Shown: piece after piece, positions 19,921-57,580 of the stretch
Numbering within the stretch: the first letter of the stretch is position 1
How the letters are laid out: the number at the start of each line of letters is the position of its first letter
Assembly: GCA_949292875.1 (NCBI GenBank)
Contig: CASFBJ010000020.1
Span: 11,744 to 75,743 of the forward strand
From: an uncultured Christensenella sp.
Lineage (GTDB): Bacteria; Bacillota; Clostridia; Christensenellales; UBA1242
Length of the DNA: 64,000 nt
Direction: 5' to 3'
Made by a program: the position numbers and the translations under genes
The notes under the pieces: model-generated
The model's database searches: none
Told to the model about the DNA's origin: nothing
The model's input: the letters and a program-made list of their open reading frames with translations, nothing else

Positions 19921-19974
19921 TCGTTTGTCATACATTTAGTAATAATATAATTTTAATGTGTATACTTATAAGGG

Positions 19975-29600: not shown

Positions 29601-32509
29601 TTGATAGCGGTGATGGCAGCACATCTAATCCATTTATAATAAAGACTTCTGACCAATTGCATAATTTAAGTACTGTAATAAATTCTCCTACACTTTATCA
29701 AAAATATAGTTCATTATCATACGAACTAGGTGGAGATATTATGATTGTAGGTGATACGAAAACATCTGTAAGTATTGATGGTACAAACCATAATGGTATA
29801 TTTGTTTCTATAGGTACTACAAGTTATCCATTTAAAGGAATATTTGATGGTAAGGGATATACTATTTCTAATCTAATTACGGCAACAAGTCAAAAAAGGA
29901 GCAGTGGGCTTTTTGGTCTTACAGATGGCGCAACTATTAGAAATGTAAATCTTGAAGGTGCTAAGATTTATTCAAGTAACTCTGGTGCAGGGGCAATTGT
30001 TGCTTATGCTATTAATAGAACCTTAATCGAAAATTGTCATAATAATTCAACGACGGGAACTATTTTAAGTATTGCTAATAATGTTGGTGGAATAGTAGGT
30101 GAAATGTATAATTCAACAATAAAAAATAGTTCTAATAAGTCTTCTGTAAGTGGTTATAATCAATTAGGCGGAGTAGTTGGCGGTGTCTATGAAAATTCGG
30201 TTGTGTACAATGTTGCAAATTATGGTAGCATTTATGCAAATAAGATTGGTAGCAATGCATATGATGTAGGAGGAGTTATCGGTAAGATTGGAGGGTCCGC
30301 TTCTACTCAAACTACATGGGGTTCTTGTATTGCTATTAATCTATATAATGCAGGCGCTATTACTACTAAACAAGGTTCAAATTATTCATCTGCTGTAGGT
30401 ACAATTGTTGGTTATAAAGGATATGCTTCGTATGTTTTTAATGCGTATTCTGATGGTGTTCTCACATATTATGGTACAAATACTGGTCCAGGTGGTGGCA
30501 TAGGTTCTGGTCGTTATAATGAACAAAATGATACAACTCAGTCAGCAAATGGTTTAAGGAATATATATTACAAAGAAAATACATATATAAGAACAGATGG
30601 AACAACAAATACTTATGTAAATGACTCTAATGTAGATGGATACAACTTAAGTGAAAATGCAATAATAGGAAATGGTGTAAATATCATTACAGATTATGCA
30701 ATATATGGTACAAAAGCATTTGCTTCGCTTGCAACACTATTTAATGCGTGGATATATGATTTAGTAAATATGTCTGGCCTTATGCCACCAAGGCATTATA
30801 CTATGGGTAGTGATAGTTATGTAGATTACGACTCATTATATGAGTATATACAAGTTTTAGGGTTTAGTAATGATGACTTAAATTATTGGATAAAATCTAC
30901 AACGCCTACCAAAACTGCATACATAACTCAACCAAAAGATGGCTTAACTTCTATATATTTTAAAATAGTAGATTTGAATGGCGGTAGTTTAAATGGTACA
31001 TATTCTAGAGTTTATGGCAAAGTTGTGAAATCTGATGGAACTCTTTTATATGAAGATTCTGAAATTATTTATAAAAAAGATTTTACAAGAAGTGGCTACA
31101 GATTTGTTGGTTTAAATACTCAACCTGATGGTAAAGGAACTTTTATAAATCCTCAAACAAATACCAATGGCGAATATTATAATATTACAGTTGGAGATGT
31201 GGTTGGTGTTGAGAAATATTATGCTGTATGGGAAAGACTTTTTGCAGAAGGTGAAGGTACTAAAGAAAAGCCTTACATGATTTCAAATGGTCAACATTTA
31301 GTGAATTTGGCACAACTTGTAAAATCTAATGCAGATAATGGTGCATATGCAACTGCTTATTATCACCAATCTTCAGAAATTCATTTGGAAGATTTTGAAG
31401 GCTTTGCTCCAATAGGAACCAGTACATATCCTTTTAAAGGTTATTATTACGGATATAACAAGATTATATATAATGACAAAATTGATTTGGCAAGTACGGA
31501 TAATGTTGGCTTATTTGGTTATACAAGTGGCGCTACACTTATGTCCATAAAGGTGTATTTCTCAAATGGTATAAAAGGTAAAAATAATGTTGGTGGTATA
31601 GTAGGCTATGCTAAAGACACTATAATTATTGATTGTGAAAATCAATCTACAAATATGACAGGAACAAATTATGTAGGTGGGATAGCGGGCTACTTGATTA
31701 AGTCTAGTGGAACATCTATGATTATAAATTCTAGGTCATCTGCTAATGTTACAGGAACTAATAATGTTGGCGGTTTAGTTGGCCGTGCAGATAATAGTAT
31801 AATTGAAAATAATGTTTTACATAGTACAAGGACAATAAAAGGCACAACAAATGTTGGTGGAGTATGTGGATATATGGTGTCTACAAAAATATTGAATATA
31901 GTTGTTCATCATATTGTATCATGTACAAATACTGCAGTCTCTGGTAAGTTAGTTGGTGTAATCGGAGGTACTGCCAGTGCAAGCACACTATCTTACTGTT
32001 ATTATAATAGTGCTGTAAATACACAGTTGCAGAATGTGGGAACGGGTACAGGATTTACTTCAAGCATTGTAGTAGGGTACGCACCGTCTTCACCATATAA
32101 ATTGAGTAGTAGTCAAACAATAGGAGGGTATACGGCTCAAACCGTGTATCAGGCAATGCATTTATATATAGAACATATTACTCATGCAAGTGCTTCAACT
32201 TATATACTTGGCTATTGGACTAATAGTTCGGGAGGCATTACTCCTTATCCAAATACTTATACATCTTATATGGTGGTGGTTACATTTTGTACAAATGCAG
32301 ATGTTAATTGGTCTGTATTCCCAGTACAAAGTGGATACAGAAATTTTGAACTTGAAGCACCAACAAAACCAACTAGAACAGGTTATACTTTCCTCGGTTG
32401 GTATGATGCGAGTGGTAATCAAATAATAAATGCATCAAATGAAATAGTAGGGGGAACTTATTTAGTTTCAAAAAATATGATTTTGTATGCAAAGTGGCAA
32501 TCTGCGTAA
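26687..32509 (+). CDS. giant cell-surface protein: N-terminal signal anchor, many Listeria-Bacteroides (Flg_new/InlB B-repeat) domains and two blocks of GLUG-type repeats
   Basis: 1940 aa, RBS AGGAGGG. Repeated G[YH]xFxGW[YE] motifs include GQTFDGWYG, GYEFLGYFD, GYDFDGWLV, GYIFQGWYF, GYVFAGYYT, GYTFKGWEI, GHLFKGWEV, GYEFNAWKP, GYRFVGLN and GYTFLGWYD. Runs of NVGGIVG, QLGGVVGG, YVGGIAG, NVGGLVG and NVGGVCG form the GLUG-like blocks. No LPXTG motif was seen. Confidence 0.85.
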   Translation: MLQIKSNKHFNRKIYIFGIICAVCLIFLGSIITTLALFSSSKKDYIDINFNDENVKIDAILNPDSTDGYADVTLLKFFKPSVEVPYVDLLQSAQITLSQSSRSALNARFRIGFEYYDAQNINNEKLQTIISYLNNSVDFSSVVSTNPYIGCSWVFNVSSGYYELKSGDSLAVLDSSAKEITISMVDSRVVFSGIENLNIDKNLFTGEDKNIFEKISLAVQFEIVDSGSNFSINAPTYSYGKVAIFDTNGGDKIEAKLLTGDNVVLPNATKGGQTFDGWYGEAAYNTLIGQAGQTVAQTEKNKTYYASFSPTKYVVTLDPNGGILYGSTSLHILNNVLFGEDFLSSPAITYKTGYEFLGYFDENNLCYINEKGEAIRKWDKTESATLTAKYSNPLVYNIVYTNIEPEAYFGDETVYDYTFGDVKVVPNPIKGGYDFDGWLVNGNSNPVKDFTINATTSGTIYLEAKFTPINYTATLTYGGTTSNLTYNIESGLTLPTVSASYAGFQVQSKVGNWEQGERYAVGSIVTQRFGNVTLVAVNAIEGIIFDGNTKDDFYVEPIGLGIDTDATVILPNAYRDGYIFQGWYFDSACTQVCERVYKVDLSDFDEEYKLYAKWTAGEAKYTVTLHNDNGLDQTIEFTQNSEKKGTFNIPSTIVPPVKNGYVFAGYYTKENSEGFKFYNNAGASLIAEFTNAYTTSYEYTYDLYASWVQNLYSITFDTNGGTAVSTIYYTSNTESVNYPTTAKYGYTFKGWEIVSQDGNWSTTTIGVQDVINTLNLYGNVALKAIFEPIVYNATFYYLALDDTTKQFTTLTQAVTYTLDDTVLTLPSNSLTGHLFKGWEVTSGMGSWKLGQLYDASTTTINLNSSYYGDVNFTARYDVTTYTINFEYLLNGVVQTGEEYVQATKPIYFTYQNTSVTLRNLLDNIGYEFNAWKPKANAGAWQTTESFMSGEVVSITADRLYNVTLVSDITKFFDSGDGSTSNPFIIKTSDQLHNLSTVINSPTLYQKYSSLSYELGGDIMIVGDTKTSVSIDGTNHNGIFVSIGTTSYPFKGIFDGKGYTISNLITATSQKRSSGLFGLTDGATIRNVNLEGAKIYSSNSGAGAIVAYAINRTLIENCHNNSTTGTILSIANNVGGIVGEMYNSTIKNSSNKSSVSGYNQLGGVVGGVYENSVVYNVANYGSIYANKIGSNAYDVGGVIGKIGGSASTQTTWGSCIAINLYNAGAITTKQGSNYSSAVGTIVGYKGYASYVFNAYSDGVLTYYGTNTGPGGGIGSGRYNEQNDTTQSANGLRNIYYKENTYIRTDGTTNTYVNDSNVDGYNLSENAIIGNGVNIITDYAIYGTKAFASLATLFNAWIYDLVNMSGLMPPRHYTMGSDSYVDYDSLYEYIQVLGFSNDDLNYWIKSTTPTKTAYITQPKDGLTSIYFKIVDLNGGSLNGTYSRVYGKVVKSDGTLLYEDSEIIYKKDFTRSGYRFVGLNTQPDGKGTFINPQTNTNGEYYNITVGDVVGVEKYYAVWERLFAEGEGTKEKPYMISNGQHLVNLAQLVKSNADNGAYATAYYHQSSEIHLEDFEGFAPIGTSTYPFKGYYYGYNKIIYNDKIDLASTDNVGLFGYTSGATLMSIKVYFSNGIKGKNNVGGIVGYAKDTIIIDCENQSTNMTGTNYVGGIAGYLIKSSGTSMIINSRSSANVTGTNNVGGLVGRADNSIIENNVLHSTRTIKGTTNVGGVCGYMVSTKILNIVVHHIVSCTNTAVSGKLVGVIGGTASASTLSYCYYNSAVNTQLQNVGTGTGFTSSIVVGYAPSSPYKLSSSQTIGGYTAQTVYQAMHLYIEHITHASASTYILGYWTNSSGGITPYPNTYTSYMVVVTFCTNADVNWSVFPVQSGYRNFELEAPTKPTRTGYTFLGWYDASGNQIINASNEIVGGTYLVSKNMILYAKWQSA

Positions 32510-40662: not shown

Positions 40663-40793
40663 GTTATATAATTATGTCTAAATTTTTAATTCAAGACTAA
40701 TTTTTTTAATTTTCAAAAAAAGTTGTCCTACCTTTTGTAAGTTTTTGTTTTTTATATGCTAGTATTTTGGCGAATGTGGTAAAGGAGGAGTTT

Positions 40794-41057
40794 ATGGACG
40801 AGCAAGAAGATTTAAAGTCTTTACTACTTAAAAAAGCGAACGGATATGATGTGGAAGAGGTAGTTGAAGAGTATAGTGATGTTGATGGTGAGCTCGTACT
40901 AGTTAAAAAAAAGATAACTCACAAACACATTCCTCCAGATACTGCACTTTTAAAACTCCTTGTTGAAAGTAAAGATGAAGAAAATGAAGATTTAAGTAAT
41001 TACACTGAAGAAGAATTAAAACAAATGCTTAAAGATTTGGTAAAAGATGAGAATTAG
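40794..41057 (+). CDS. terminase small subunit-like protein (C-terminal core only; no N-terminal HTH)
   Basis: ATG at 40794 with RBS AGGAGG (40783-40788). GYDVEEVVEEY...KKKITHKHIPPDTALLKLL resembles the GYEYEE...K.hPPD..A..f.LKN core of Firmicutes phage small terminases, as I recall it. Its position immediately 5' of the portal supports the call. Confidence 0.5.
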   Translation: MDEQEDLKSLLLKKANGYDVEEVVEEYSDVDGELVLVKKKITHKHIPPDTALLKLLVESKDEENEDLSNYTEEELKQMLKDLVKDEN

Positions 41058-41065
41058 CGGAGGTA

Positions 41066-42925
41066 ATGATGAAAAAAAACGAAGTAAAAGAAGATAAGGC
41101 AGAACTTATAAAATCTATCAAAGAAGATTTGTATAGAAGACAATTAGATAGAAAAAAATTAGAGATGCAATGGAAATTGAACTTAAATTTTTTATCAGGT
41201 AATCAATATTCTACTTTAAATGGTAATGATGAAATTATAGATTCAATAAAAAGATACGATTGGGAAGAAAAAAAGGTCTACAATCACTTGAGCGGTTTAC
41301 TTGAGGTTAGACAAAGTAAATTGTGTGCAAATAAGCCAACAATTACAGTAATACCAGCAAGTAGCGATAGCAAAGATATGGCAACTGCTAGAACTTGCCA
41401 ATCTATTTGCCAGTCTTTATGGCATAAAAACAGGCTGTCCGAACTTATAGCAAAAGCTATAAGCTGGAGTGAGTCTTGCGGTACTGTTTTTTATAAAGTT
41501 ACATGGAATAGCGAACTTGGAGATGTTTTATTAAATGAAAATGGAAAAGAGATTTATAGTGGAGATGTAAAAATAGATGTTGTATCTCCATTTGAAATTT
41601 TTCCGCAAAATATTGCTTATGAAAACTTAGAAGATAATGAAAGTATAATTCATGCAAGAGCTTTTACTGTAACTAAAATAAAAGATATGTATGGCATAGA
41701 TGTAAAGGGTGAAAAAATAGATTCATTTGGAATTATGCGAGATGATTTGCAAGATATTATATCTCCGTATAAAGCAAATGCGGGCAAAATTCAAGAGGAA
41801 GAATATGCTTTAGTTATAGAAAAATATATTTTACCAACAAGGGAAATGCCTAATGGTAGACTTATCATAATTTGTGGTGAACATGTTTGTTATGATGGGG
41901 AATTGCCTTATATAAATGTTACACATAAAAAAAGGGGATATCCATTTATCAGGCAAGTTGCTTATCCTTTAGCAGGTTGTTTCTTTGGCATAAGTGTAGT
42001 TGAAAGAGCTATACCATTACAAAAAGACTACAATGCTTTAAAAAATAGGAAAATGGAATTTTTAAATAGGTTATGTATGGGTGTACTTCTTGCTGAAGAT
42101 GGTGCTGTAGATATAGACAATATAGAAGAAGAAGGGCTAGAACCTGGAAAAGTTATAGTCTATAGGCAAGGAGCCAATCCGCCTATGTTTATGCCGACAA
42201 ATAATATACCTGTAGATTTTGACTCTGAAGAAGCAAGAATAATAAATGAATTTAGTGCAATTACAGGTGTAAATGATTTGGTTAGACAAGGTAACGTAAA
42301 TGTTAGTAATATTAGCGGTACTGCATTACAAATACTTCTAGAACAAGAAACTGCAAGACTTAGTGTGAGTGCAGATAGTATAGGTCATGCTGTTTGCGAA
42401 ATAGCGACGCAAGTTTTAAGATTATATAAACAGTTTGCTACTTTTCCTAGAATTTTAAAATTGGTAGGAGAGAAAGGAAGTATAGATGCTATTTGCTTTA
42501 GTTCAAGAGATATAACTACAGATGATGTTGTTATAGATAATCAATCAGAAACAATTACTACAAAAGCACAACAAAGAAGTTTAATATTTGAGATTTTATC
42601 TTCTGGTGTACTACAAAATGAAGAAGGAAAACTAAGCAATACAACAAGACAGAAGATTATAGATATGCTAGGACTAGGCATATATGATATGGGTAATGAC
42701 ATTACATCATTGCAATTAAAATATGCTCAAAAAGAAAATATAGACTTTACTAATGGTAAAACAGATGTGTTTGTTCAAGAAATAGATGACCATGATATGC
42801 ACATAAAAGAACATTCCTGCTTGTTACTTGGTGCTGAAGGCGATAGATTAAGAAAAAATGGCATGTATGAAAAAGTTATGGAACATATTAGAGAACATAA
42901 AAAATTTAAATCATTAACAAATTAA
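41066..42925 (+). CDS. phage portal protein
   Basis: 619 aa, RBS GGAGG. The N-terminal portal-like pattern is QWKLNLNFLSGNQY...NKPTITVIPASSDSKDMATA...GTVFYKVTWN. Size and position upstream of the scaffold and capsid genes fit. Confidence 0.75.
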   Translation: MMKKNEVKEDKAELIKSIKEDLYRRQLDRKKLEMQWKLNLNFLSGNQYSTLNGNDEIIDSIKRYDWEEKKVYNHLSGLLEVRQSKLCANKPTITVIPASSDSKDMATARTCQSICQSLWHKNRLSELIAKAISWSESCGTVFYKVTWNSELGDVLLNENGKEIYSGDVKIDVVSPFEIFPQNIAYENLEDNESIIHARAFTVTKIKDMYGIDVKGEKIDSFGIMRDDLQDIISPYKANAGKIQEEEYALVIEKYILPTREMPNGRLIIICGEHVCYDGELPYINVTHKKRGYPFIRQVAYPLAGCFFGISVVERAIPLQKDYNALKNRKMEFLNRLCMGVLLAEDGAVDIDNIEEEGLEPGKVIVYRQGANPPMFMPTNNIPVDFDSEEARIINEFSAITGVNDLVRQGNVNVSNISGTALQILLEQETARLSVSADSIGHAVCEIATQVLRLYKQFATFPRILKLVGEKGSIDAICFSSRDITTDDVVIDNQSETITTKAQQRSLIFEILSSGVLQNEEGKLSNTTRQKIIDMLGLGIYDMGNDITSLQLKYAQKENIDFTNGKTDVFVQEIDDHDMHIKEHSCLLLGAEGDRLRKNGMYEKVMEHIREHKKFKSLTN

Positions 42926-42936
42926 AAGGAGATTAT

Positions 42937-43647
42937 ATGGAAATATTAGAACAACCTAAAGATGTACAAGAAGATGTATCTATAGAGAAAGAAGATTTGT
43001 CTTATGATAAATCTGCTGAAGATGATAAGAGCGCTCAACTAGAAAATGAAAGAAAAGATATAGATGAAAGTACTTCAAATATGGGCTCTAATTTGCTTGG
43101 CAAGTTTAAAGATGTAGATGAGTTGACTAAGGCTTATAACAGTTTGCAAGCTGAGTTTACTAGGAAATGTCAAAAACTTAAATTGTTAGAAAAAAAACAA
43201 GAACAAGAATCTTCCGAGGCACAAAATAAAACAACATATGACACAAAGGATAGTAATGTGCCTATCTATCTGCAAGAAGATTATAGAGAAAAAGTTACAG
43301 AGTTTATAACAAATAATCCATATGCTAAGCAATATGCAAAAGATATAAGTAAAGAAATAATGCAAGATTCATCTCTAACATTGCAGGGTGCTTATAATAA
43401 AGTGCTTGCAAAAAAGTATAGAGAACCTAAGGAACTTTTGCAAGATAAAAACTTCATTGAAGATTATATACTTAATGATGAGAACCTAAAAAAAGAGTTA
43501 GTAAAAAAATATGTAGAAGAAGTCAAAGAATCAAAAGTACCTTATCTTATTTCAGGTAATACTGGTATAAGTGCTGGTACAAAGGATATTGAAATCTCAA
43601 ATCTTGAGGAAGCGAATAAACTAGCTTTAAAACTTTTTAGGGGATAG
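42937..43647 (+). CDS. putative scaffolding protein
   Basis: 236 aa, acidic and predicted helical/coiled. It sits between the portal and capsid genes. RBS AAGGAG. Confidence 0.5.
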   Translation: MEILEQPKDVQEDVSIEKEDLSYDKSAEDDKSAQLENERKDIDESTSNMGSNLLGKFKDVDELTKAYNSLQAEFTRKCQKLKLLEKKQEQESSEAQNKTTYDTKDSNVPIYLQEDYREKVTEFITNNPYAKQYAKDISKEIMQDSSLTLQGAYNKVLAKKYREPKELLQDKNFIEDYILNDENLKKELVKKYVEEVKESKVPYLISGNTGISAGTKDIEISNLEEANKLALKLFRG

Positions 43648-43734
43648 TAATTTTAAAATGATTATAAAAATTAAAATTAAATGAAAAATTTAAAGAACAA
43701 AACGATATTTAATATAAAAAAGGAGTGTTTTTTA

Positions 43735-44904
43735 ATGGTAACTTTAGAAACTGCGGAAAATGCGTTAAAGACTATATACTTAGGTGTAGTTTCAAATCAA
43801 TTAAATATAGGAGTAAACCCTTTGCTTGCAAGAATAGAACAAACTACAAGCGATGTATGGGGTAATGAAATAAGAAAGTTGGCTCCTTATGGATTAAATG
43901 GTGGAGTTGGTGCTGGTACTGAGATAGGCCCATTGCCAAGTGCTTTTCAAAATCAATATGTTAAGTTTGTATCTGAACTTAAAAACCTATATGGTACAAT
44001 AAATATATCTGATAAAGCAATCCGTTCATCTAGTCATAGTGCTGGTGCATTTGTAAATTTGTTAAACGCTGAAATGGAAGGACTTATTAAGGCTAGCCAA
44101 TTTAACTTTGGAAGAATGTTATATGGTGATGGTTCTGGTTTATTAGGAACAGTGTCAGCATTTAGTGATAGTAAAATAACATTAGATTCAGTTAAGAATT
44201 TTATGGAAGGAATGGTTATAGATATAATTAATGCTGATGATGTTAAAGTAAGTAAAGCTAGAGTAGTATATGTAGATAGGGTAAATAAGCAAGTTACTTT
44301 GTCAAATGTGTCTGAATATACATATGCTGAAGGTGATAAGGCATATGTACAAGGTAGTAAGGATAATGAAATCACAGGACTTGGAAGTATATTCTCTGAC
44401 TCTGCAACGCTTTATGGTGTAAATAAAACTCAATATCCATGGATGAATTCTTATAAAAAAGATTCTGTAGGAAATATTAGTGATTCAGTTATTCAAACTG
44501 CAATAGATTTTATGGATGAAACAAGTGGTAGTATTGTAGACTTTATTGCTTGTAGTAGTGATGTAAAAAGAGCTTATCAAGAATATCTAGGTGAATATAG
44601 AAGAAATATAGATGTTATGGAGCTAAATGGTGGTTTCAAGGCATTAACTTATAATGGTATACCTGTAGTTAGTGATAGGTTTATCAATGATGGAACAATG
44701 TACCTTTTAAATACTAAAGAGTTTGCATTACATCAATTATGTGATTGGAAGTGGCTTGAAGGTGAGAGTGGAAAGATTATAAAACAAGATGCTAATTCTC
44801 CGACATACACTGCTACATTAGTTAAGTATGCAGATTTAATCTGTAATAAACCTAATGGACAAGCTAGACTATCTGGCATAACAGGAAAGGGTTTAGGCGC
44901 TTAA
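43735..44904 (+). CDS. phage major capsid protein
   Basis: I prefer the ATG at 43735 (RBS AGGAG at 43721-43725), giving about 389 aa. The size, the position, and a C-terminal pattern typical of tailed-phage capsid proteins (PTYTATLVKYADLICNKPNGQARL) support the call. A strong hairpin lies immediately downstream. Confidence 0.7.
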   Translation: MVTLETAENALKTIYLGVVSNQLNIGVNPLLARIEQTTSDVWGNEIRKLAPYGLNGGVGAGTEIGPLPSAFQNQYVKFVSELKNLYGTINISDKAIRSSSHSAGAFVNLLNAEMEGLIKASQFNFGRMLYGDGSGLLGTVSAFSDSKITLDSVKNFMEGMVIDIINADDVKVSKARVVYVDRVNKQVTLSNVSEYTYAEGDKAYVQGSKDNEITGLGSIFSDSATLYGVNKTQYPWMNSYKKDSVGNISDSVIQTAIDFMDETSGSIVDFIACSSDVKRAYQEYLGEYRRNIDVMELNGGFKALTYNGIPVVSDRFINDGTMYLLNTKEFALHQLCDWKWLEGESGKIIKQDANSPTYTATLVKYADLICNKPNGQARLSGITGKGLGA

Positions 44905-44925
44905 TTATAATATAAAGAAAATAAA

Positions 44926-44964
44926 ATGTGTATGTTTTCTTATTTTAGAAACATACACATTTTT
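44926..44964 (+). terminator. strong hairpin (terminator or attenuator) immediately after the capsid gene
   Basis: ATGTGTATGTTTTCT pairs with AGAAACATACACAT (~14 bp, one bulge), then TTTT. This is the placement commonly seen after highly expressed phage capsid genes. Confidence 0.6.
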
Positions 44965-44983
44965 AAAATTAAAGGAAAAATAT

Positions 44984-45313
44984 ATGCTTAAAATAATAGA
45001 AAATGATGTGTTTAATATATCTAATAGGGTAAAAAATATAGATAAAAATTATTTGATATTTTATAATACTATAAAAAGAAGATTTGAAATTCATTATAAA
45101 AAAGGTTTAGTTACTTGTTTGGAAGTTGTTGTTCGTTATCCTACCTTAGATTATAGGGTTATAGTTGATTTACAAAAAAATAGAAGTTTTAGAATTGAAA
45201 AAATTATGCAAGAGATTGAAATGCATAATAAAAAAATTCAAGAAAGTGAAAATGAAAATATAAAAAATGATTTAATTTCAAAAGTAAAAGTCATGATGCT
45301 AAAGGGGGTATAG
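44984..45313 (+). CDS. hypothetical phage-module protein
   Basis: 109 aa, RBS AAAGGA. No motif recognised. Confidence 0.45.
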   Translation: MLKIIENDVFNISNRVKNIDKNYLIFYNTIKRRFEIHYKKGLVTCLEVVVRYPTLDYRVIVDLQKNRSFRIEKIMQEIEMHNKKIQESENENIKNDLISKVKVMMLKGV

Positions 45314-45317
45314 AGTT

Positions 45318-45872
45318 GTGAATGTAAATAAAATATTGCAAATTTCATTAAAGTATCTTAATAAGGAACATTTAATTAAAGAATTAGAAAGTGAAAATGT
45401 TAATGACAATGCTGAATTGATTCAATTATTAGATGTTCTTAACGCTGTTGTAAAAAAAGTGGCAACAGAGTACATTTATTGCATTGCAGAAAAAGAGATA
45501 TATGTAGATTATACTGGTAAATATAGTTTAACTTCTTTACCTAAAAAATTTTATGCTGTAAGGAAGCTTAAAAATCATTTAGGTTTAAAATCAAAATATA
45601 GAGAAGAAGATGGATACTTACTATTAAAACCTGGCAAGTATGATTTAACTTATATATATACTCCACAGGAAGTAAATTTTCAAGATGAAATAACAAGTTT
45701 TCCATCTGTTTTAGTTGATGAAGCTTTAGCTTTAGGTGTAGTTGCAGAATATTTTTTGAAATATGGCTTTTTTGAAGAGTATGAAATATACGAATACAAA
45801 TTTCAAGATAAGATGAAAAAATGTGCTCAAAGATATGACGAAGTTAAGTGGAAGGATAAAATATGGGTATAG
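45318..45872 (+). CDS. putative head-completion/adaptor protein (assigned by position only)
   Basis: 184 aa, GTG start after AAGGGGG. Its size and position correspond to P22 gp4-type adaptors. No sequence-level proof. Confidence 0.35.
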   Translation: MNVNKILQISLKYLNKEHLIKELESENVNDNAELIQLLDVLNAVVKKVATEYIYCIAEKEIYVDYTGKYSLTSLPKKFYAVRKLKNHLGLKSKYREEDGYLLLKPGKYDLTYIYTPQEVNFQDEITSFPSVLVDEALALGVVAEYFLKYGFFEEYEIYEYKFQDKMKKCAQRYDEVKWKDKIWV

Positions 45873-47383
45873 CAAAAAATCAATATAAAAAATTAGGGGT
45901 AAATAGAAATTCGTATTCATTTGATTTTAATTACTTTCTAAATGGAATGAACTCTAGTATAGATGAAAGTATACAATCTGTATCTAATGCTTATTCTATT
46001 AAAAATTTTACAGTAAAAAAAGGTGTACTATCTACAGGACTAGGTTTAAGAATACTTACTTTTCCTAGTGATATGGAAGATGGCGCTGAAACACCTTATG
46101 AGCATACATATACAGGACAAGCATTAAGTGTTTATTCTTTTCCTTATTATGATGTACTTGCTAAAAAAGATAGAGATATGCTTTTCATATATACTTCAGA
46201 CCATTTGCTATACTACATGAAATATTCATCACCATATAGACCATTTTTTAAGTATAGTTGTCCCGAGTTTACTTCAATTCCTGATTATCTATATTATATA
46301 ATGCCTGACGGAAAAGAGTCCGGATTATTTTGTTCTGAGAATGAGCCTTTAACACTATTAAACTTTTTTGTCAATTATAAAGTTGTGGAAAATGCTCCAT
46401 CTATAACAAATTTGTGCGTGCATTATGATAGAGTGTTTGCTGTTACTCGTATAGGTAGAAGCAAAGTTTGGTTTAGTGATGAAATGGACCCTACAAATTG
46501 GAATATATCCAGTACTGAAGGCGGTTATATAGGTATGAATGATTCTTTAGGAGATTGTAAAAAAGTTTTGTCTTTCAATAACTATGTTTTTGTTTTTAGA
46601 GAATATGGAATAACAAGAATAACTGCTTACGCTTCTCAAGAAAGTTTTAGTATGCAAAATGTATACGCTTCATCAAATTATATATATACAAATACAGCTT
46701 GTATTTGTGGCGATGTAATTTGCTTTTTAGCAACTGATGGATTATATATGTTTGATGGAGTTAATGCTAAGAAAGTAAATGCAGGATTTGAAAAAATATA
46801 TGAAGGGATAAATCAAGACAAAGCAAAAGGCGTTTTTTATAAAAATAGCTATTATTTGATGATGAATACAAACTTAGCACCTATAAACGAATTGCAAAAT
46901 GTAAAAAATACGCTTTTACGATATGATTGTGAAGATGGTTTATACGATATTTTAACAAATGTAGAACTTATGGATATAGAAAAGATGACAAGTTCTGGTA
47001 TAGAACGATTGGTAAGTATAGATATACAATCTCATGAGGGAGAAGAAGGATTTGAAACAAGACTAAGTCAAATAAATTATTTTGGAGATGTGTATGGCAA
47101 AAGTACTGAGAAAGAATGGATTAGTCCCTATACAGATTTGGGTAAGCCTGATTACACTAAAAATATATATGCCATAGCATTGCAAACAACTTATGATTGT
47201 GATGTTGAAATAATTACAGACAAAATGAGTCAAATAGTTCATTTTAAAGGTAGCGATAAAGCTCAAAGAAAGCCCGTATTTGTAAGTGGAGTAATGATTA
47301 AAATTAAAATTTCTACACAAGAAAACGAGGCAATGATATCTCATCCTATCTTGTATTACAGGTTAGGAAAAGCAAATGCTTAA
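45863..47383 (+). CDS. putative tail-hub/stabilisation protein (assigned by position only)
   Basis: 506 aa, overlapping the previous ORF by 10 nt. Its size and position correspond to P22 gp10-type proteins. Appears beta-rich. Confidence 0.35.
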   Translation: MGIAKNQYKKLGVNRNSYSFDFNYFLNGMNSSIDESIQSVSNAYSIKNFTVKKGVLSTGLGLRILTFPSDMEDGAETPYEHTYTGQALSVYSFPYYDVLAKKDRDMLFIYTSDHLLYYMKYSSPYRPFFKYSCPEFTSIPDYLYYIMPDGKESGLFCSENEPLTLLNFFVNYKVVENAPSITNLCVHYDRVFAVTRIGRSKVWFSDEMDPTNWNISSTEGGYIGMNDSLGDCKKVLSFNNYVFVFREYGITRITAYASQESFSMQNVYASSNYIYTNTACICGDVICFLATDGLYMFDGVNAKKVNAGFEKIYEGINQDKAKGVFYKNSYYLMMNTNLAPINELQNVKNTLLRYDCEDGLYDILTNVELMDIEKMTSSGIERLVSIDIQSHEGEEGFETRLSQINYFGDVYGKSTEKEWISPYTDLGKPDYTKNIYAIALQTTYDCDVEIITDKMSQIVHFKGSDKAQRKPVFVSGVMIKIKISTQENEAMISHPILYYRLGKANA

Positions 47384-47450
47384 TGAAAAATTTGCACAAG
47401 AATTGAATATGATTTTGCGTGCTAATTACATAAAAAAAGGAGGGCATATA

Positions 47451-48386
47451 ATGGCTAAATTATTTGCTGATAATTCAAAAATAATAGATGAAGTAAAAAA
47501 ACAAAAACAAGATGTGATAGATAAGATTAAAGGAATAGATTCTACATTAAACCTTAATCCTATACCAGAAAAACCAGAATATGTTAGTGATGTTACATAT
47601 CTTGATGAGAAGAAATATGATGAACAAGATATAAAAGATAAAGCGGAAAATAGTTTAAGTTCATACAAAAACCAAAATGAGTTTAACATAGAAAAAAATT
47701 ATCAAAATGAAAAAACAAAAAATGAACAAAATATAGAAGATACTTTAAAAGAATTAGCTTCTGGAGAAAAGGATATAAAAGATTTGGCAAACAAAGCAAA
47801 AGAAGAAGCTAAAGAAAACTCTGTATCTAGAGGTTTGGGAAATAGTAGCATATACTCAACAAAAATAGATGATATAGAAAATGAAAAAACTATAGCCTTA
47901 AGTGAAATAAAAAGTCAAGCAGAGTCAAAAGTTAATGATTTAAAAAGAAAAAGTGCAGACTTAGAAAGACAGAGGGATACTGCACTTGCAAACTTTGAAA
48001 TTGAATATGCTGTTAAGTTGCAAAAAGAAATAGATTCTTTGACAAATGATATAACAGACTATAATAATAAAATTGTTGAATATAACAACAAACTTAAGGA
48101 AAATGAAGCTAAGAAAAAAGCTGAGTTTGACGAAAAGTATAAAAAAGAAGTTGAAAGAGTAGAGGAAAGAAATCAAGAAATTTTAAAGTTTTTAGATAAG
48201 TACGGCTACGGAGCATTAAATGCACAAATAAATAAGCAAAAAGTAGATATTGTTAATGAATATTTAAATACTTTAGATAAACAAACTGCGTTACTTGTCC
48301 TTATGGAAGATGAAAGTTTTAAAAATCTTATTGGAGAAGCGGAGTTTAATAAAATACTCACTCAGGTTAAAGAGAGAAAATATTAA
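47451..48386 (+). CDS. coiled-coil structural protein (possible needle/plug analogue)
   Basis: I prefer the ATG at 47451 (RBS AGGAGGG at 47438-47444), giving about 311 aa. It is highly charged and looks heptad-like (KE-rich) throughout. Confidence 0.4.
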   Translation: MAKLFADNSKIIDEVKKQKQDVIDKIKGIDSTLNLNPIPEKPEYVSDVTYLDEKKYDEQDIKDKAENSLSSYKNQNEFNIEKNYQNEKTKNEQNIEDTLKELASGEKDIKDLANKAKEEAKENSVSRGLGNSSIYSTKIDDIENEKTIALSEIKSQAESKVNDLKRKSADLERQRDTALANFEIEYAVKLQKEIDSLTNDITDYNNKIVEYNNKLKENEAKKKAEFDEKYKKEVERVEERNQEILKFLDKYGYGALNAQINKQKVDIVNEYLNTLDKQTALLVLMEDESFKNLIGEAEFNKILTQVKERKY

Positions 48387-48595
48387 TGTGGGAAGAAGTA
48401 TTAAGAGTTGCAATATCTAACGGAATATGGGCAGTTCTTTTTGTTGCTTTGCTTATTTATCAATTAAGAGATAGCTCTGCAAGAGAAGAAAAGTATCAAA
48501 AAACTATTGAAATTCTAACAGAAAAGTATGCGGTAATAGAAGATATAAAAGAAGATATACAAGATATAAAATTATCTTTGAATGGTAAGGAATAA
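48386..48595 (+). CDS. BhlA/UviB-family holin-like peptide
   Basis: 69 aa; its ATG overlaps the previous TAA (TAATG). GIWAVLFVALLIYQLRDSSAREEKYQKTIEILTEKY closely parallels the UviB/BhlA pattern (G.FA.LF..LL.Y......RE.KY...I..L), as I recall those sequences. Confidence 0.7.
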   Translation: MWEEVLRVAISNGIWAVLFVALLIYQLRDSSAREEKYQKTIEILTEKYAVIEDIKEDIQDIKLSLNGKE

Positions 48596-48919
48596 ATGAA
48601 AATTTTTTCAAATTACAAATTTTATTTAATTATCGCATACACAATAACTCTTATAGTATACAATGTTTGTCAAAGTTGTGGAATTATAGTTAGTGAAAGT
48701 TTTATTTTAAATATAATGTCTTACATACTAAGCATGCTAATAGCTTACAATGTTATAACAATAAATTCCAATAAGTCTGCCGATGAAATAAAGCAAGATT
48801 TAGAAGATATTTCAAATACTATAAATAGTGAAACGAATGAAGAAAATGTGCAAGATGAAAATAACGATGAAACACAAGAAACTAATCTTTGTAATGAAAC
48901 AAATGTAGACAAAAATTAA
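48596..48919 (+). CDS. small two-TM membrane protein with an acidic tail (possible second holin-like component)
   Basis: 107 aa, starting 1 nt after the previous stop. It has two hydrophobic helices and a D/E/N-rich C-terminus. Confidence 0.4.
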   Translation: MKIFSNYKFYLIIAYTITLIVYNVCQSCGIIVSESFILNIMSYILSMLIAYNVITINSNKSADEIKQDLEDISNTINSETNEENVQDENNDETQETNLCNETNVDKN

Positions 48920-48975
48920 TATATAAAATGAAATAAGCAAGTGAACTATGTGTTTTTAAAGCATATATGAAAATT

Positions 48976-49003
48976 AAAAAGGAACAATTGTTCCTTTTTT
49001 TTT
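48976..49003 (+). terminator. intrinsic terminator closing the phage-like module
   Basis: AAAAA-GGAAC, loop AATT, GTTCC, then TTTTTTTTT. Confidence 0.75.
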
Positions 49004-49085
49004 AATATATAAATCTATTTATTTATATTTTGCGTAAAAACAAGTATTTTTTATACAATTTTTTACAAAAATATAATTAAAGATA

Positions 49086-49114
49086 TTGCAATATTTTATT
49101 TTTATTGGTATAGT
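49086..49114 (+). promoter_or_regulatory. SigA-type extended -10 promoter of the Rho-like gene
   Basis: TTGCAA (49086-49091), a 17-nt spacer, then TGgTATAGT (-10 at 49109-49114). Confidence 0.6.
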
Positions 49115-49160
49115 AAAAGGCAGTAAATCATTATAGCCATTTTACTAAGGAGGAAAATAT

Positions 49161-50507
49161 ATGGAAGATGTAATTTTACCTAATTTAGAAGAATTAAGCA
49201 TTTATCAATTAAGAGCACTAGGAAGACAAGTAGGTGTTTGCTTACCTACAACATTAAAAAAACAAGATTTAATAAATAAAATTAGAGCTATAATGAGTGG
49301 AGCAGAAATGCCCTATGTTAAAACAACAAATAAGGGACGACCAGCAAAAGATGTAATAGATATAGACTTTATGAAAGCAACAGAAGAAGCATTTATGGGA
49401 TTAGATTCTAGTTATAAAACATCTTTGCCAGATTTGGCGTCTTACGAAACTTTGAAACCTAAAGATTATGCTAATTATGAAGAAAGCGTAGAAATGGGTT
49501 TAATTGAGATAAGTAGAGAGGGAAGTGGCTACTTGATGACTGTACCACAAACCATGAACGAGCCTATATATGTAAAGAGAACAACCGTTAGTGAGTTGAA
49601 TTTAAAGTCTGGAGATTTTTTAAGAGCTACTGTTATACAAGATGAGAAAAAAAATGTAGCATTTGTAAAAGATGTTATATCTATAAACGGACAAAAAAGC
49701 AAAAGCAGTTTACAAAATTATTCATTTGAAAGTGAAGAATCTTTATTAGAAAAAACACAAATAGTTAATGACGATACAAATGACAATTTCAAAAAACTAA
49801 AAAATATAGTTAAAACTTATTTGGGAGATAGGGTACTTTTGTATACTCCGGAAAAAAAGAGTGTACCCTATGTTATGTACGACACTATATCTATTCTTAG
49901 TAAAAATAATGCAATTACAGACATTGTATATTTGGGATTAAATGTAAATGCTGAGCTTGCTACTATGTTGCAAAGTTTTGAAAAAGTAACTCTAATTGCT
50001 TCAAAATTTGGAGATGCTCAAAACTATCAAAAAAAATTAGTTGAATTGGCTTTTAAACATGTGAATAATATTTCAAATATTCAAAGCAAAAATGTTGTCT
50101 TTGTTGTTCAAAATTTAAGTGAAGTTATCTCATTGTTTACAGACGAGAAAAAGACATACTTTAGTGACTATTGTAAGAAGTTTTTTTCAAAAGCAAAGCA
50201 AACAAGAAATGGCTCACTTACTATAGCCTATAATATAGTAGGAGATGAGGTTTTGCTTGATGAATACGAAACAAATGAAAATGTATTGTTAAAGTATTTG
50301 CCATATAAATGCTTGACAAATTGCTTTATAAAGTATAACCTTATAGAAAGTCATAGAACAGAATTCTTTTTGACTTATGCGAAAGACGATTTTAAAGAAA
50401 AGATTTTATCTTATCTAGAAAATGGGGATTATTGTTTAAAACATATTGAACTTGAAAAACTTATTAAGACACAATCATTAGATGTAGATGTATCTACGCT
50501 AATCTAG
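49161..50507 (+). CDS. Rho-like protein with degenerate ATPase motifs (probable pseudo-ATPase)
   Basis: 448 aa, RBS AAGGAGG. The Rho_N/SAP-like segment is LEELSIYQLRALGRQVGV...KKQDLINKIRAI. The Rho RNA-binding-domain-like segment is GLIEISREGSGYLMT...IYVKRTTVSELNLKSGDFLRATV. The C-terminal domain aligns with the Rho RecA core, but Walker A reads LGDRVLLYTPEKKSV (E. coli GQRGLIVAPPKAGKT) and Walker B reads NVVFVVQNLSE (E. coli DVIILLDSITR). Confidence 0.7.
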   Translation: MEDVILPNLEELSIYQLRALGRQVGVCLPTTLKKQDLINKIRAIMSGAEMPYVKTTNKGRPAKDVIDIDFMKATEEAFMGLDSSYKTSLPDLASYETLKPKDYANYEESVEMGLIEISREGSGYLMTVPQTMNEPIYVKRTTVSELNLKSGDFLRATVIQDEKKNVAFVKDVISINGQKSKSSLQNYSFESEESLLEKTQIVNDDTNDNFKKLKNIVKTYLGDRVLLYTPEKKSVPYVMYDTISILSKNNAITDIVYLGLNVNAELATMLQSFEKVTLIASKFGDAQNYQKKLVELAFKHVNNISNIQSKNVVFVVQNLSEVISLFTDEKKTYFSDYCKKFFSKAKQTRNGSLTIAYNIVGDEVLLDEYETNENVLLKYLPYKCLTNCFIKYNLIESHRTEFFLTYAKDDFKEKILSYLENGDYCLKHIELEKLIKTQSLDVDVSTLI

Positions 50508-50526
50508 GTTTAGGAGGTATATTTTT

Positions 50527-50733
50527 ATGTTGTTTGAGATGCAAGTTGAAGCAATGACCAAAAAAGTAGGAAATTCTTATGTTTTATCTAATCTATTGGG
50601 CAAAAGAGCAAAACAAATAGCTCAAAATCCGCCACAAGAAGTTATAGATGAAAAAAAGATACCTATTGAAATAGCAGCAAGTGAGATTTTAAAAGGTGAA
50701 ATAGTTGCTCAACAAACAAATCCAAATGCTTAA
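50527..50733 (+). CDS. rpoZ: DNA-directed RNA polymerase omega subunit
   Basis: 68 aa, RBS AGGAGG. NSYVLSNLLGKRAKQI...PIEIAASEILKGEI is omega-like. Confidence 0.75.
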   Translation: MLFEMQVEAMTKKVGNSYVLSNLLGKRAKQIAQNPPQEVIDEKKIPIEIAASEILKGEIVAQQTNPNA

Positions 50734-50803
50734 TTGCAAATTTAGTGCTTAGGCACTTTTTTTAAAATTAGATTAAAATTAAAATATATTTTAAATAAAA
50801 TAA

Positions 50804-50832
50804 TTGACAAACGATTATCTGTGTGATATACT
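50804..50832 (+). promoter_or_regulatory. SigA-type extended -10 promoter of the rpmG-secE-nusG operon
   Basis: TTGACA (50804-50809), a 17-nt spacer, then TGaTATACT (-10 at 50827-50832). Confidence 0.6.
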
Positions 50833-50881
50833 ACACTAGCACGATGAAAATCGTGTAATTTTTTGGTGTGAGGGAAAAAAG

Positions 50882-51031
50882 GTGAGAACTAAAATAACAT
50901 TACAATGTACTGAGTGTAAAGAAAATAATTACGACTCAATGAAAGAAAAGAAAAATAATCCTGAAAGATTAGAACTAAAGAAGTTTTGCCCTAAATGTAG
51001 AAAACATACATTGCATAAAGAAACAAAATAA
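50882..51031 (+). CDS. rpmG: 50S ribosomal protein L33
   Basis: GTG at 50882. Translation: [49 protein letters not shown] (49 aa, four Cys zinc ribbon). It falls below the ORF-track cut-off. Confidence 0.9.
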
Positions 51032-51053
51032 TTTCAATTGAGGAGTATAGACT

Positions 51054-51494
51054 ATGTCAAAATCAAATAAGAAAAAAAGTCACAAAACTTCTAACATAAC
51101 TAAAAAAGTAGAAAATGCTCAAAATCTTGATAATGTTCAAGATATAGAAAATGTAGAAAATGAGCAAGTTGAAGTTAAAGAAGTTAACGCAGAAGTTAAT
51201 GTTCAAGAAACTGAAACTGCTTCTAAGTCAAACAAAAAATCTGAGCAAAATAAGTTAGATAAAAACAACAAAAAAAATAAAGCAAATAAAAACAAAAAGG
51301 CTAAAGAAGGAAAGAAAACTTTTAGTCAAAAATGTAAAGCGCTAATGTCTGAACTTAAAAAAGTTACTTGGCCATCTTTTAAGGAGGCTTGTAAACAAAC
51401 AGGCGTAGTTTTAGCTTTAGTTGTTATTTTTGGTGTTGTTTTGTTAGGAATAAATCTGCTTTTAGGTTGGTTATTCGGTCTTATTGTCATGTAA
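51054..51494 (+). CDS. secE: preprotein translocase subunit SecE with a long Lys/Asn/Glu-rich N-terminal extension
   Basis: 146 aa. The C-terminal ~60 aa (ELKKVTWPSFKEACKQTGVVLALVVIFGVVLLGINLLLGW) is a canonical single-TM SecE. The first ~85 aa are low-complexity. Confidence 0.85.
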   Translation: MSKSNKKKSHKTSNITKKVENAQNLDNVQDIENVENEQVEVKEVNAEVNVQETETASKSNKKSEQNKLDKNNKKNKANKNKKAKEGKKTFSQKCKALMSELKKVTWPSFKEACKQTGVVLALVVIFGVVLLGINLLLGWLFGLIVM

Positions 51495-51545
51495 TAAATT
51501 AAAAAACTTATAATTTTAAATTAAGGAGAATAACATAGATAAGTT

Positions 51546-52070
51546 ATGGAAGTAATGGAAACAGAAGCAAAATGGTATGTTTTGCACACTTTTACTAATT
51601 ATGAAAATATAGCAAAAGAAAACTTAAAGTTGGTTATAGAAAACTTTAATCTTCATGATAGAATTTTTGACATAGTTATACCTATGCAAGATGTTATAGA
51701 AGAAAAAAAAGGTAAAAAAGTTATAGTTCAAAAGAAAATATTACCTTCTTACATTTTTATAAAAATGATTTACGGAGATGATATTTGGCACGCTATAACT
51801 AGAACTCGTGGTGTCACTGGTTTTGCTGGACCTAAGGGAAGACCACTCCCTCTTAGCGAAGATGAAATCAGACAAATGCATCTAGAAGATATAAAATGTG
51901 CTGATGTAAAAGTTGGCGACGCTATTGAAATTACAAATGGGCAACTTAGTGGTTGCACAGGTACTATTTTAAGTGTAAATGAAGAAAATGAAACTTGTAA
52001 GGTTCAAGTAGAAGCTTTTGGTAGAGACACTGAAGTAGAACTCACCTTTACAGACTTCAAAAAGTTATAA
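51546..52070 (+). CDS. nusG: transcription termination/antitermination factor NusG
   Basis: 174 aa with an NGN domain (KWYVLHTFTNYENIAKENL) and a KOW motif (GDAIEITNGQLSGCTGTI). Confidence 0.92.
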   Translation: MEVMETEAKWYVLHTFTNYENIAKENLKLVIENFNLHDRIFDIVIPMQDVIEEKKGKKVIVQKKILPSYIFIKMIYGDDIWHAITRTRGVTGFAGPKGRPLPLSEDEIRQMHLEDIKCADVKVGDAIEITNGQLSGCTGTILSVNEENETCKVQVEAFGRDTEVELTFTDFKKL

Positions 52071-55776: not shown

Positions 55777-56127
55777 CTAATTAGCACCATTATTTGCATC
55801 TTGAGCAAGACCAAATATAGTTGTTACATTTGCAGCTAATACATAAATTATAACAAGTAATACAACTACAACAGCTATACCAATTAAGAAATTCATTATT
55901 CTTTTCTTTGCTTCATCTCTCTTTTCAGGGCTTTCTGCTCTTGCCATATTTACACCTAAAATGATGGCATATATTGCACCTACTGCAAGCAAAACAATAA
56001 TGATAGGAATCATTGCAGTTTCAATAAAATCTAAAATAGGTCCTAAAAATTCATAACCTGTACCTTCTAAACCTTCACTAAAAGCAAGTACATTTCCTAA
56101 TCCAAAAATACTATTCAAAAAACTCAT
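55777..56127 (-). CDS. small two-TM protein with a VirB2/TrbC pilin-like layout
   Basis: ATG at 56127 (RBS GGAGGAAA on the minus strand at 56131-56138), 116 aa. The layout is TM1 IPIIIVLLAVGAIYAIILGV, a charged loop ARAESPEKRDEAKKR, then TM2 FLIGIAVVVVLLVIIYVL. The longer ORF-track version lacks an RBS. Confidence 0.45.
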   Translation of the reverse strand: MSFLNSIFGLGNVLAFSEGLEGTGYEFLGPILDFIETAMIPIIIVLLAVGAIYAIILGVNMARAESPEKRDEAKKRIMNFLIGIAVVVVLLVIIYVLAANVTTIFGLAQDANNGAN

Positions 56128-56370
56128 ATATTTCCTCCAGATAGAAACTAAAATAAGCTTTATATCGCTTAAATATATCAAAATATAACACAATATATTT
56201 TGTCTTGCAACTTTTTATTAAAGATTTTAAAAAAATCTATATTTTTATTTTGTGCATTAAAATTTTATATATTCTATAAATAATAAAAAATAGAGAAAAC
56301 GATTAATTTTTGAACTTTAATACTTTAAAAGCATTAATTTTTTAAAAAATAAAGAAGCAAATTTGCTTCT

Positions 56371-57580
<1,210 letters not shown>

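Follow-up and report, generated by a model that had tools for sequence, protein, structure and literature searches.

A full-length Rho homologue that has lost its motor residues, encoded upstream of rpoZ in an uncultured Christensenella sp.

The window, that is, the whole stretch of DNA analysed here, comprises 64,000 nucleotides of contig CASFBJ010000020.1 from an uncultured Christensenella sp. An open reading frame (ORF) of 448 amino acids (aa) runs on its plus strand from an ATG at 49161 to a stop at 50507. We found that the encoded protein is a full-length descendant of Rho with the Rho fold, and that the residues of the Rho motor have been lost from it. It belongs to a large, fast-evolving family whose members have so far been seen only in uncultured, AT-rich Clostridia. 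On balance, we favour the reading that a rho orthologue has here been converted to a task that needs no ATP and depends mainly on the N-terminal part of the protein.

The Rho-like protein and its former motor

The protein matched the NCBIfam model TIGR00767 with E=2.8e-13 (aa 8-318 against profile positions 5-263 of 415), at 49.5 bits against the cut-off of 509 that the curated model sets for functional Rho. A phmmer search of PDB sequences returned Thermotoga maritima Rho (3l0o) first (E=1.9e-7, aa 113-394) and Escherichia coli Rho entries next. In Pfam, Rho_N was matched at aa 9-41 (E=5e-5; 23.6 bits, just below the cut-off of 24.9) and Rho_RNA_bind at aa 113-179 (E=1.2e-5, slightly under its gathering score). 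The Pfam scan gave no match to PF00006 in the protein, and the precomputed Pfam assignment gives PF07497 only. An AlphaFold2 model had a predicted local distance difference test score (pLDDT) of 82.3 and a predicted template modelling score (pTM) of 0.74; a control model, built from an alignment without any canonical Rho, reached 80.0 and 0.72 with identical secondary structure. All 50 of the PDB matches listed by Foldseek were Rho for the main model (E down to 2.5e-20), as were all 50 for the control (E down to 9e-23), with template modelling scores against Rho structures of up to 0.71 for the two models. The N-terminal helix bundle was found by the Pfam signal, by the helices of the model and by alignment with canonical clostridial Rho N-termini. 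The by-eye alignments with Rho in the initial annotation were recovered by HMMER and MAFFT, and the TIGR00767 and phmmer matches remove its caveat that Rho homology might prove insignificant.

These alignments cover GLIEISREGSGYLMT / IYVK in the OB region, and in the core they set FFSKAKQTRNGSLTIAYNIV against FFGAARN..GGSLTI and DEVLLDEYETNENV against DEVIYEEFKGTGNM. At the position of Walker A (GxxxxGK[ST]) the protein reads TPEKKSVP, and because the dipeptide GK is absent from all 448 residues, there is no intact P-loop shifted elsewhere, a possibility that had been raised together with the claim of a destroyed P-loop. The replacement of the Walker B Asp, also claimed before, was reproduced by the program alignments (LLDSIT to VVQNLS). 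Several losses go beyond that earlier list. The catalytic Glu and the Arg valve are gone (DERPEE to LNVNAE), and both parts of the secondary RNA site, the Q-loop and R-loop of the central channel, are deleted in the alignments. In the pyrimidine pocket of the primary RNA site (E. coli F62, F64, R66, Y80, E108 and Y110), two of the six survive, the equivalents of F64 (a Y here) and Y80; F62, R66, E108 and Y110 have given way to other residues, and family members do not conserve the pocket. As for the arginine finger, a nearly invariant R399 lies one position off the aligned finger, beside a two-residue gap. The residues that build the RecA fold are kept, namely GDR ahead of the former P-loop, SxFGD, NV, KxxF, SLT and N374.

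As motor residues, channel loops and most RNA-pocket residues have been lost, the protein, judged by these motifs, cannot be an ATP-driven RNA translocase. The earlier description of an ATPase-dead Rho-like protein is supported by the motif losses; its suggestion of retained RNA binding is weakened to a doubtful one, since four pocket residues are replaced and the OB domain is only 23% identical within the family. The OB fold itself is kept.

Family, selection and chromosomal slot

A word-indexed search with the window protein returned three close relatives (99%, 44% and 45% identity) and then canonical Rho; the same kind of search with a family profile was dominated by canonical Rho, with few members of the family among its matches. 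When 1.84 billion representative proteins were searched exhaustively with a profile, 1643 matched at E<=1e-3, 438 of them at E<=1e-10. The best 150 of the 1643 matches, together with the canonical proteins P0004 and P0005, were aligned to the canonical Rho profile and classified by state: four representatives were canonical, 13 kept the P-loop and had lost other catalytic residues, 63 had lost the P-loop and kept the Walker B Asp or a Glu, 62 had lost everything, and 10 were fragments. Similar losses were seen in at least 138 protein clusters (50% identity) with intact ORFs of 340-490 aa. Members are named 'hypothetical protein' or 'Rho termination factor N-terminal domain-containing protein' by NCBI and always come from Clostridia metagenome-assembled genomes (MAGs). 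A first scan of GTDB with patterns from the close clade matched 85 stretches, of which none was confirmed; the scan of GTDB species genomes gave 15 loci, all from uncultured Clostridia in rumen and gut samples, with carrier MAGs named either "Clostridia bacterium" or, in several cases, "Christensenella sp."

Selection on the family is purifying, and the gene is not a pseudogene. In relatives of about 45% identity the degenerate motifs are nearly unchanged (EKKSVP/EKSSVP, VVQNL/LVQNL); in distant members these positions vary and the P-loop stays lost. For two P-loop-less proteins that are 87% identical (L013 and L019), the ratio of nonsynonymous to synonymous substitution rates (dN/dS) was 0.086 overall and 0.03-0.13 in each of four regions, the dead RecA-type domain included. 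Fifteen residues are shared by all of 19 members whose identity is only 20-45%. A functionless, decaying relic would account for the loss of all catalytic motifs and for a divergence much faster than that of the neighbouring genes. Against it stand the intact ORFs in the clusters above, dN/dS values of 0.09-0.25, invariant residues across members only 20-25% identical, a promoter, a ribosome-binding site and an operon with rpoZ, and a confident predicted fold. The selection and conservation data led us to reject this reading, to which we assign next to no probability, and the strain-specific pseudogene that the initial annotation had held up against its own proposal falls with it.

We compared the gene with about 15 related loci, which hold canonical, half-decayed and fully decayed forms in one slot, veg-sipL-spoIIR-sleB-ypeB-rho. 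The five upstream genes precede the Rho-like gene in L003-L005, L006-L008, L009 and L012-L024. The canonical Rho P0155, with the motifs AAPKTGKT, LLIDERPEEV, LLDSITR and SGTRRE, is encoded at exactly this position on a 499-kb contig. In the motif table, the slot series runs from canonical (L026) through intermediate forms (L014, L021, L023 and L024) and close relatives of these in which the P-loop lysine is also lost (L012, L013, L016, L017, L019, L020 and L022) to fully degenerate forms (L003, L006 and L009). The intermediates keep a GxKGSGKT P-loop and a DD Walker B, carry DKRPE (catalytic Glu to Lys) and have lost the Arg finger and the Q- and R-loops; by these motifs they may bind nucleotide without hydrolysing it. 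They match PF00006 plus PF07497 or PF07498. In the window clade (the window, L001, L010 and L011) the upstream side is altered. L010 has the order tmk-holB-PSP1-MTase-rsmI-Rho-like and L006 the order holB-PSP1-MTase-rsmI-spoIIR-sleB-ypeB-Rho-like, and because the two share holB-PSP1-MTase-rsmI upstream, the window clade can be tied to the ypeB slot. The shared slot is thus found at the level of the family, with the window linked through L010 and L006. As canonical, half-degenerate and dead forms share one slot, the simplest reading of these gene orders and motifs is in-place decay of the lineage's own rho orthologue. The term 'paralogue', used in the initial annotation, is therefore probably wrong. 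GC content falls along the same series, from 40-51% at canonical loci through 30-47% at intermediate ones to 25-35% at dead ones, a trend in line with the known lack of Rho in some AT-rich genomes (cited in PMC11347177).

The position of the gene, mostly 3' of spoIIR-sleB-ypeB, might also point to a sporulation-linked factor, as veg-sipL-spoIIR-sleB-ypeB lies directly upstream in about 15 loci. However, in most loci a terminator after ypeB is followed by a promoter-like site ahead of the Rho(-like) gene (read by eye), which is evidence against co-transcription with the spore genes, and nearly all related loci have -35 / TGnTATAAT-type sites 25-50 nt upstream of the Rho(-like) start (also by eye). 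A sporulation-specific promoter was dropped as a candidate; what the upstream regions show are extended -10 promoters of the sigma-A type. Since canonical rho is found in this slot too, the linkage to spore genes predates degeneration, and the gene is kept without those neighbours in the window, L001, L010, L011, L028 and L029. We consider a sporulation-linked factor improbable.

Two canonical rho genes read by eye have their promoter-like site 140-190 nt upstream and hence long leaders (L026 ~9740-10000; L025 ~3980-4240), compared with leaders of 25-50 nt in the degenerate genes (window 49086-49161). The short leaders might reflect lost Rho autoregulation, for which the canonical examples are too few to judge.

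N-terminal module, operon and surroundings

Mean pairwise identity among 19 fully degenerate members was 50% in the helix bundle (aa 1-46) and 53% in the PYVKxTKKGRPxK motif (aa 47-64), compared with 12% in the linker, 23% in the OB domain, 25% in the RecA-type domain and 23% in the C-terminal helices. The strongest constraint thus lies on the N-terminal 64 residues, which comprise the helix bundle and the KGRP motif. Within the sequence NKGRPAK, G59, R60, P61 and K63 are invariant across the family. Because canonical Rho proteins of the same clade carry related forms, SKKGRPALR in P0155 and SKRGAPPK in P0004, this signature was inherited and is not new. The basic motif presumably resembles an AT-hook, a motif whose GRP core, with basic residues on either side, binds the AT-rich minor groove. 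A comparison of the N-terminal 69 aa with PDB sequences gave nothing informative.

Downstream, rpoZ starts 19 nt past the Rho-like stop, a gap from which we conclude that the two are co-transcribed. It is the next gene in five lineages, all with fully degenerate forms (the window, L001, L003, L010 and L011), and is not the next gene beside intermediate or canonical forms. The hairpin and T7 run after rpoZ, followed by a promoter at 50804, mark the Rho-like gene and rpoZ as a predicted two-gene operon and rpmG-secE-nusG as a separate transcription unit. The initial annotation had placed the gene beside rpoZ and the nusG operon: the neighbours are as it stated and the link to rpoZ is real, whereas nusG follows a terminator and has its own promoter. 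Six intrinsic terminators were found around the Rho-like gene (0.6 expected) and five in window positions 1-20000 (5.1 expected, no enrichment). An unusual genome-wide reliance on intrinsic termination is not claimed, since window 1-20000 is at expectation. Directly downstream of the Rho-like gene and convergent with it, three other lineages have a giant ORF of 2500-2800 aa without Pfam hits.

On these grounds we propose the following mechanism. The lineage's own rho would have given up termination in C-poor, AT-rich genomes, and the protein would have been kept for a second, ATP-independent activity. Because pairwise identity is 50-53% in the N-terminal module and 23-25% in the OB and RecA-like domains, the retained function would act through the former. 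Most likely, the helix bundle and KGRP module would bind nucleic acid or RNA polymerase, and the inert OB and RecA-like body would serve as a folded, probably oligomeric scaffold. The rpoZ operon in the most degenerate lineages would favour a role associated with RNA polymerase; a search of the literature for a Rho-omega contact that might explain the linkage gave nothing usable, so that this idea is an inference from gene order. Alternatively, the protein could bind AT-rich DNA as nucleoid proteins do. A wider claim, which we put forward only tentatively, is that a whole clade of AT-rich Clostridia turned its only rho into a motor-less protein, which selection would maintain for an ATP-independent function of the N-terminal helix-bundle/KGRP module on an inert, ring-like scaffold; the omega operon of the most derived lineages would tie this function to RNA polymerase.

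The chief competing explanation is a regulatory paralogue whose partner would be a canonical Rho from another locus: it could poison or regulate mixed hexamers as one of their subunits, or act as a decoy that draws away RNA, NusG or RNA polymerase. The Rho antagonist or modulator suggested in the initial annotation would likewise require a canonical Rho in the same genome. A paralogue would explain why the fold-building residues of the RecA-like core are kept, and canonical Rho with the same N-terminal signature does occur at other loci in related organisms (L018, L025 and L030). A persisting purine bias, linked to active Rho by PMC13323073, also speaks for it. However, the slot of the degenerate forms holds a canonical Rho in a relative, and it is there that the forms grade from canonical to dead. 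In the 14 GTDB genomes that carry a degenerate copy, the shared N-terminal pattern gave no second locus, a weak point because N-termini of the P0155 type would not match the pattern. Moreover, an identity of 45% where nusG stands at 83% is a poor fit with an interface that matches a conserved partner. The assembly of P0157, a canonical relative, is CASFVW01, which is not among the carriers and says nothing on co-occurrence. We regard a regulatory paralogue as unlikely.

Several points weigh against a converted orthologue with an N-terminal role. Upstream of the gene, the window has a phage-like module in place of ypeB, and synteny is not universal, with L028 and L029 in other contexts. The canonical Rho proteins of L018, L025 and L030 have the clade-typical N-terminus and lie outside the ypeB slot, so that the gene may also go back to an old duplication. 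In support of the converted orthologue, a crude neighbour-joining tree gathers all degenerate forms into a single group inside the clostridial canonical Rho, with P-loop-keeping forms basal to P-loop-less ones, but such a tree is prone to long-branch attraction. Between the fully degenerate L010 and L011, dN/dS was about 0.25, a value weakened by synonymous divergence near saturation in such pairs. The evidence on rho copies spans the 64-kb window and the loci read, so that a canonical rho encoded elsewhere in the carriers would escape it, and all sequences compared are MAGs and metagenome contigs. Oligomerisation, nucleic-acid binding and contact with RNA polymerase are conjectural. Finally, sense-strand purine content at the dead-Rho loci is 54-58%, no lower than at canonical loci. 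In the window it is 57.7% for plus-strand genes and 53.4% for minus-strand genes (e.g. 41066-52070), with sense-strand C only about 10-12%. For comparison, Bacillus subtilis has 53-54%, and in Bacilli without rho the bias is much weaker, which has been attributed to relief from Rho (PMC13323073). The undiminished bias hints that a pyrimidine-sensing terminator may still be at work, which would favour a paralogue, or else that something other than Rho sustains the bias in this group.

A phage-like head and lysis module occupies window positions 40700-48919 and, in L001, 1617-9758. Its contents are a portal protein, a 236-aa ORF, a major head protein, a 184-aa ORF, a 506-aa virion-like protein, DUF7934, a BhlA holin and a 107-aa holin-like ORF; terminase, integrase and recognisable tail genes are missing. 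As the Rho-like gene lies directly downstream of this portal-capsid-holin module in both the window and L001, it could be phage cargo, for example an anti-Rho device. Yet a terminator and its own promoter separate it from the module; by its sequence, the terminator-like hairpin at 48976-48999 would close the module and insulate the gene. Most family members lie in plain chromosomal contexts without phage genes, no PHROG was matched, and the patterns used picked up no relative in 2.9 million viral contigs. Given the chromosomal contexts and the viral search, phage cargo was rejected as a very remote prospect.

L001, a different species, carries this module at the equivalent chromosomal position, and the next relative, L010, is without it. 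Identity between the window and L001 is 71% for the portal, 80% for the capsid and 74% for the holin, similar to that of the flanking core genes (nusG 83%, L11 85%), which points to a module long inherited vertically or domesticated, not to a recent prophage. A lone full-length terminase large-subunit gene (Terminase_6N, phrog_2) lies 19 kb away from the portal gene; around it are unannotated ORFs, a cation-efflux gene and murC, and neither an integrase nor any other phage gene was detected close by.

Other features of the window were recorded as well. smpB, tmRNA (tag AENNTNYSFGSAVRLAA) and tRNA-Ser(GGA) stand in tandem, and most of the 10 kb after the tRNA gene is taken up by unannotated ORFs, among them one for a protein with eight DUF4116 repeats. 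The coding sequence of a collagen-triple-helix-repeat protein has a GC content of about 47% against a background of 28% and adjoins an ORF similar to type IV secretion system (T4SS) pilins; the pair (55777-57555) may have been horizontally acquired. A protein of 1940 aa with C-terminal Listeria-Bacteroides repeat domains is probably a surface protein. Coordinates are collected in Table 1.

Table 1. Coordinates and basis of the features described (window positions unless a locus is named).
Feature	Position	Strand	Basis or remark
CDS, predicted ATPase-dead Rho homologue, 448 aa	49161..50507	+	ORF, profile, PDB-sequence and model-fold matches
N-terminal helix bundle (Rho_N, helix-extended-helix), aa 12-41, LSIYQLRALGRQVGVCLPTTLKKQDLINKI	49194..49283	+	Pfam Rho_N; model helices 14-24, 34-45
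Basic motif PYVKTTNKGRPAK, aa 51-63	49311..49349	+	family alignment
Variable linker, predicted disordered, aa 65-105	49353..49475	+	pLDDT <50 for aa 63-92 and 98-100; 12% pairwise identity
OB-fold domain, aa 106-180, fold kept	49476..49700	+	Pfam Rho_RNA_bind E=1.2e-5; model strands 107-175; motif table
Former Walker A, TPEKKSVP (aa 229-236), replacing PPKxGKT	49845..49868	+	HMMER/MAFFT alignments
Former catalytic-Glu / Arg-valve segment, LNVNAELA (aa 260-267), replacing IDERPEEV	49938..49961	+	alignments
Former Walker B, VVFVVQNLS (aa 312-320), replacing VVILLDSIT; following Q-loop deleted	50094..50120	+	alignments
RecA-core structural motifs kept, KKFFSKAKQTRNGSLTIAYNIV and GDEVLLDEYETNENVLLKY; intervening R-loop (DTGSKMD) deleted	50175..50297	+	alignments
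IESHRTE (aa 395-401), nearly invariant R399	50343..50363	+	alignments; register ambiguous, 2-residue gap
Palindromic terminator-like hairpin, T/A runs on both sides, 10-pair stem on both strands	48976..48999	.	scan and sequence
Sigma-A-type promoter-like site, TTGCAA, 17-nt spacer, TATAGT; flagged TG before second hexamer	49086..49114	+	scan
Ribosome-binding site AAGGAGG, 7 nt ahead of ATG	49147..49153	+	sequence
rpoZ, RNA polymerase omega, 68 aa, own ribosome-binding site	50527..50733	+	Pfam RNA_pol_Rpb6 5.3e-8, 33 bits vs cut-off 26
Terminator-like hairpin AGTGCTTAGGCACT then T7, end of predicted Rho-like-rpoZ operon	50744..50757	+	scan and sequence
Near-consensus promoter TTGACA-17-TATACT, separate unit	50804-50832	+	scan
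rpmG	50882-51031	+	separate unit after terminator
secE	51054-51494	+	separate unit after terminator
nusG	51546-52070	+	separate unit; then rplK, rplA
Portal protein	41066-42925		phage-like module
Major head protein	43681-44904		phage-like module
Terminase large subunit	20976-22427		Terminase_6N, phrog_2
smpB, tmRNA, tRNA-Ser(GGA)	12051-12990		tandem
Eight-DUF4116-repeat protein	17168-18409	-	
1940-aa repeat protein	26687-32509		
T4SS-pilin-like ORF	55777-56193	-	
Collagen-triple-helix-repeat protein	56371-57555	-	
Giant ORF	L006 11195-18940	-	no Pfam hits
Giant ORF	L009 2305-9840	-	no Pfam hits
Giant ORF	L028 9452-17416	-	no Pfam hits
Intermediate Rho-like gene	L014 ~9965-11245		
Intermediate Rho-like gene	L021 ~4485-5891		
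Intermediate Rho-like gene	L023 ~7578-8990		
Intermediate Rho-like gene	L024 ~3929-5317		

Comparison with known systems

The ATPase domain of Rho is held to be among the best-conserved components of bacterial transcription. A large motor-less family under purifying selection implies that the Rho scaffold is useful beyond ATP-driven translocation. Its graded series, from canonical forms through those that keep the P-loop and have lost the catalytic Glu, Arg finger and RNA loops to those in which all is lost, could order the steps of motor loss. If the only rho of these genomes has indeed been converted, Rho would for the first time be seen to persist in nature as a transcription or nucleoid factor without enzymatic activity, and the gene would be a natural separation-of-function allele for the roles of Rho apart from translocation. 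A strong purine bias beside a dead Rho also makes a direct test case for explaining that bias by Rho avoidance.

The search of the literature found no description of a full-length, motor-less Rho orthologue, and none of the curated models in the Pfam and NCBIfam scans describes one, in agreement with the earlier remark that no family of this kind had been described. The closest class is the 'Rho-like' proteins of Moreira et al. (2024; PMC11347177), which that paper defines by hidden Markov models as having only the Rho N-terminal and/or RNA-binding domain. Our protein may fall under this definition, with Rho_N and Rho_RNA_bind signals (both just under the Pfam cut-off here) and no PF00006 match. 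It differs in being full length, with a recognisable, inert RecA-type domain, and in lying at the rho locus, whereas that class is an operational definition filled largely by short or single-domain proteins. The same definition would catch the cyanobacterial Rho_N-only family (DUF4912) and plant RHON1, which PMC13613805 mentions along with Rho-negative Clostridia. In functional Rho, Moreira et al. state, the ATPase domain is highly conserved without large indels; the scheme given there would nevertheless score the intermediate family members as "functional Rho", since PF00006 still matches. Surveys based on Pfam domains would thus call intermediates "functional Rho" (PF00006 plus PF07497 or PF07498) and fully degenerate forms "Rho absent", and both errors skew estimates of Rho-dependent termination in Clostridia, of purine bias and of the distribution of rut sites.

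NCBIfam NF041509 (paralog_Rho2; Rho, short form) showed a weak likeness over the OB and RecA region (E=6.7e-5), but at 22.3 bits against a cut-off of 628 the protein falls outside this family. Moreover, the short form is without the N-terminal domain, which is the best-conserved part here. The AT-hook-like oligomeric nucleoid proteins Lsr2 and H-NS offer a functional analogy, not homology: a basic GRP-type motif is combined with a domain that could oligomerise, in very AT-rich genomes. There is no relationship in sequence or fold, and DNA binding by the Rho-like protein would be an analogy only.

The nearest relative is canonical Rho itself (TIGR00767; E. coli 1pv4/3ice, T. maritima 3l0o). The family protein is set apart from it by the missing P-loop, catalytic Glu, Arg valve, Walker B Asp, Q-loop and R-loop, by the change of four of the six primary RNA-site residues, by the 49.5 bits scored against a cut-off of 509, by far faster evolution than that of its neighbours and by a short 5' leader. 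With canonical Rho it shares the arrangement of N-terminal helix bundle, OB and RecA-type domain, a predicted fold for which Rho is the best PDB match, the chromosomal slot of a relative's canonical rho, and the N-terminal signature found in P0155 and P0004.

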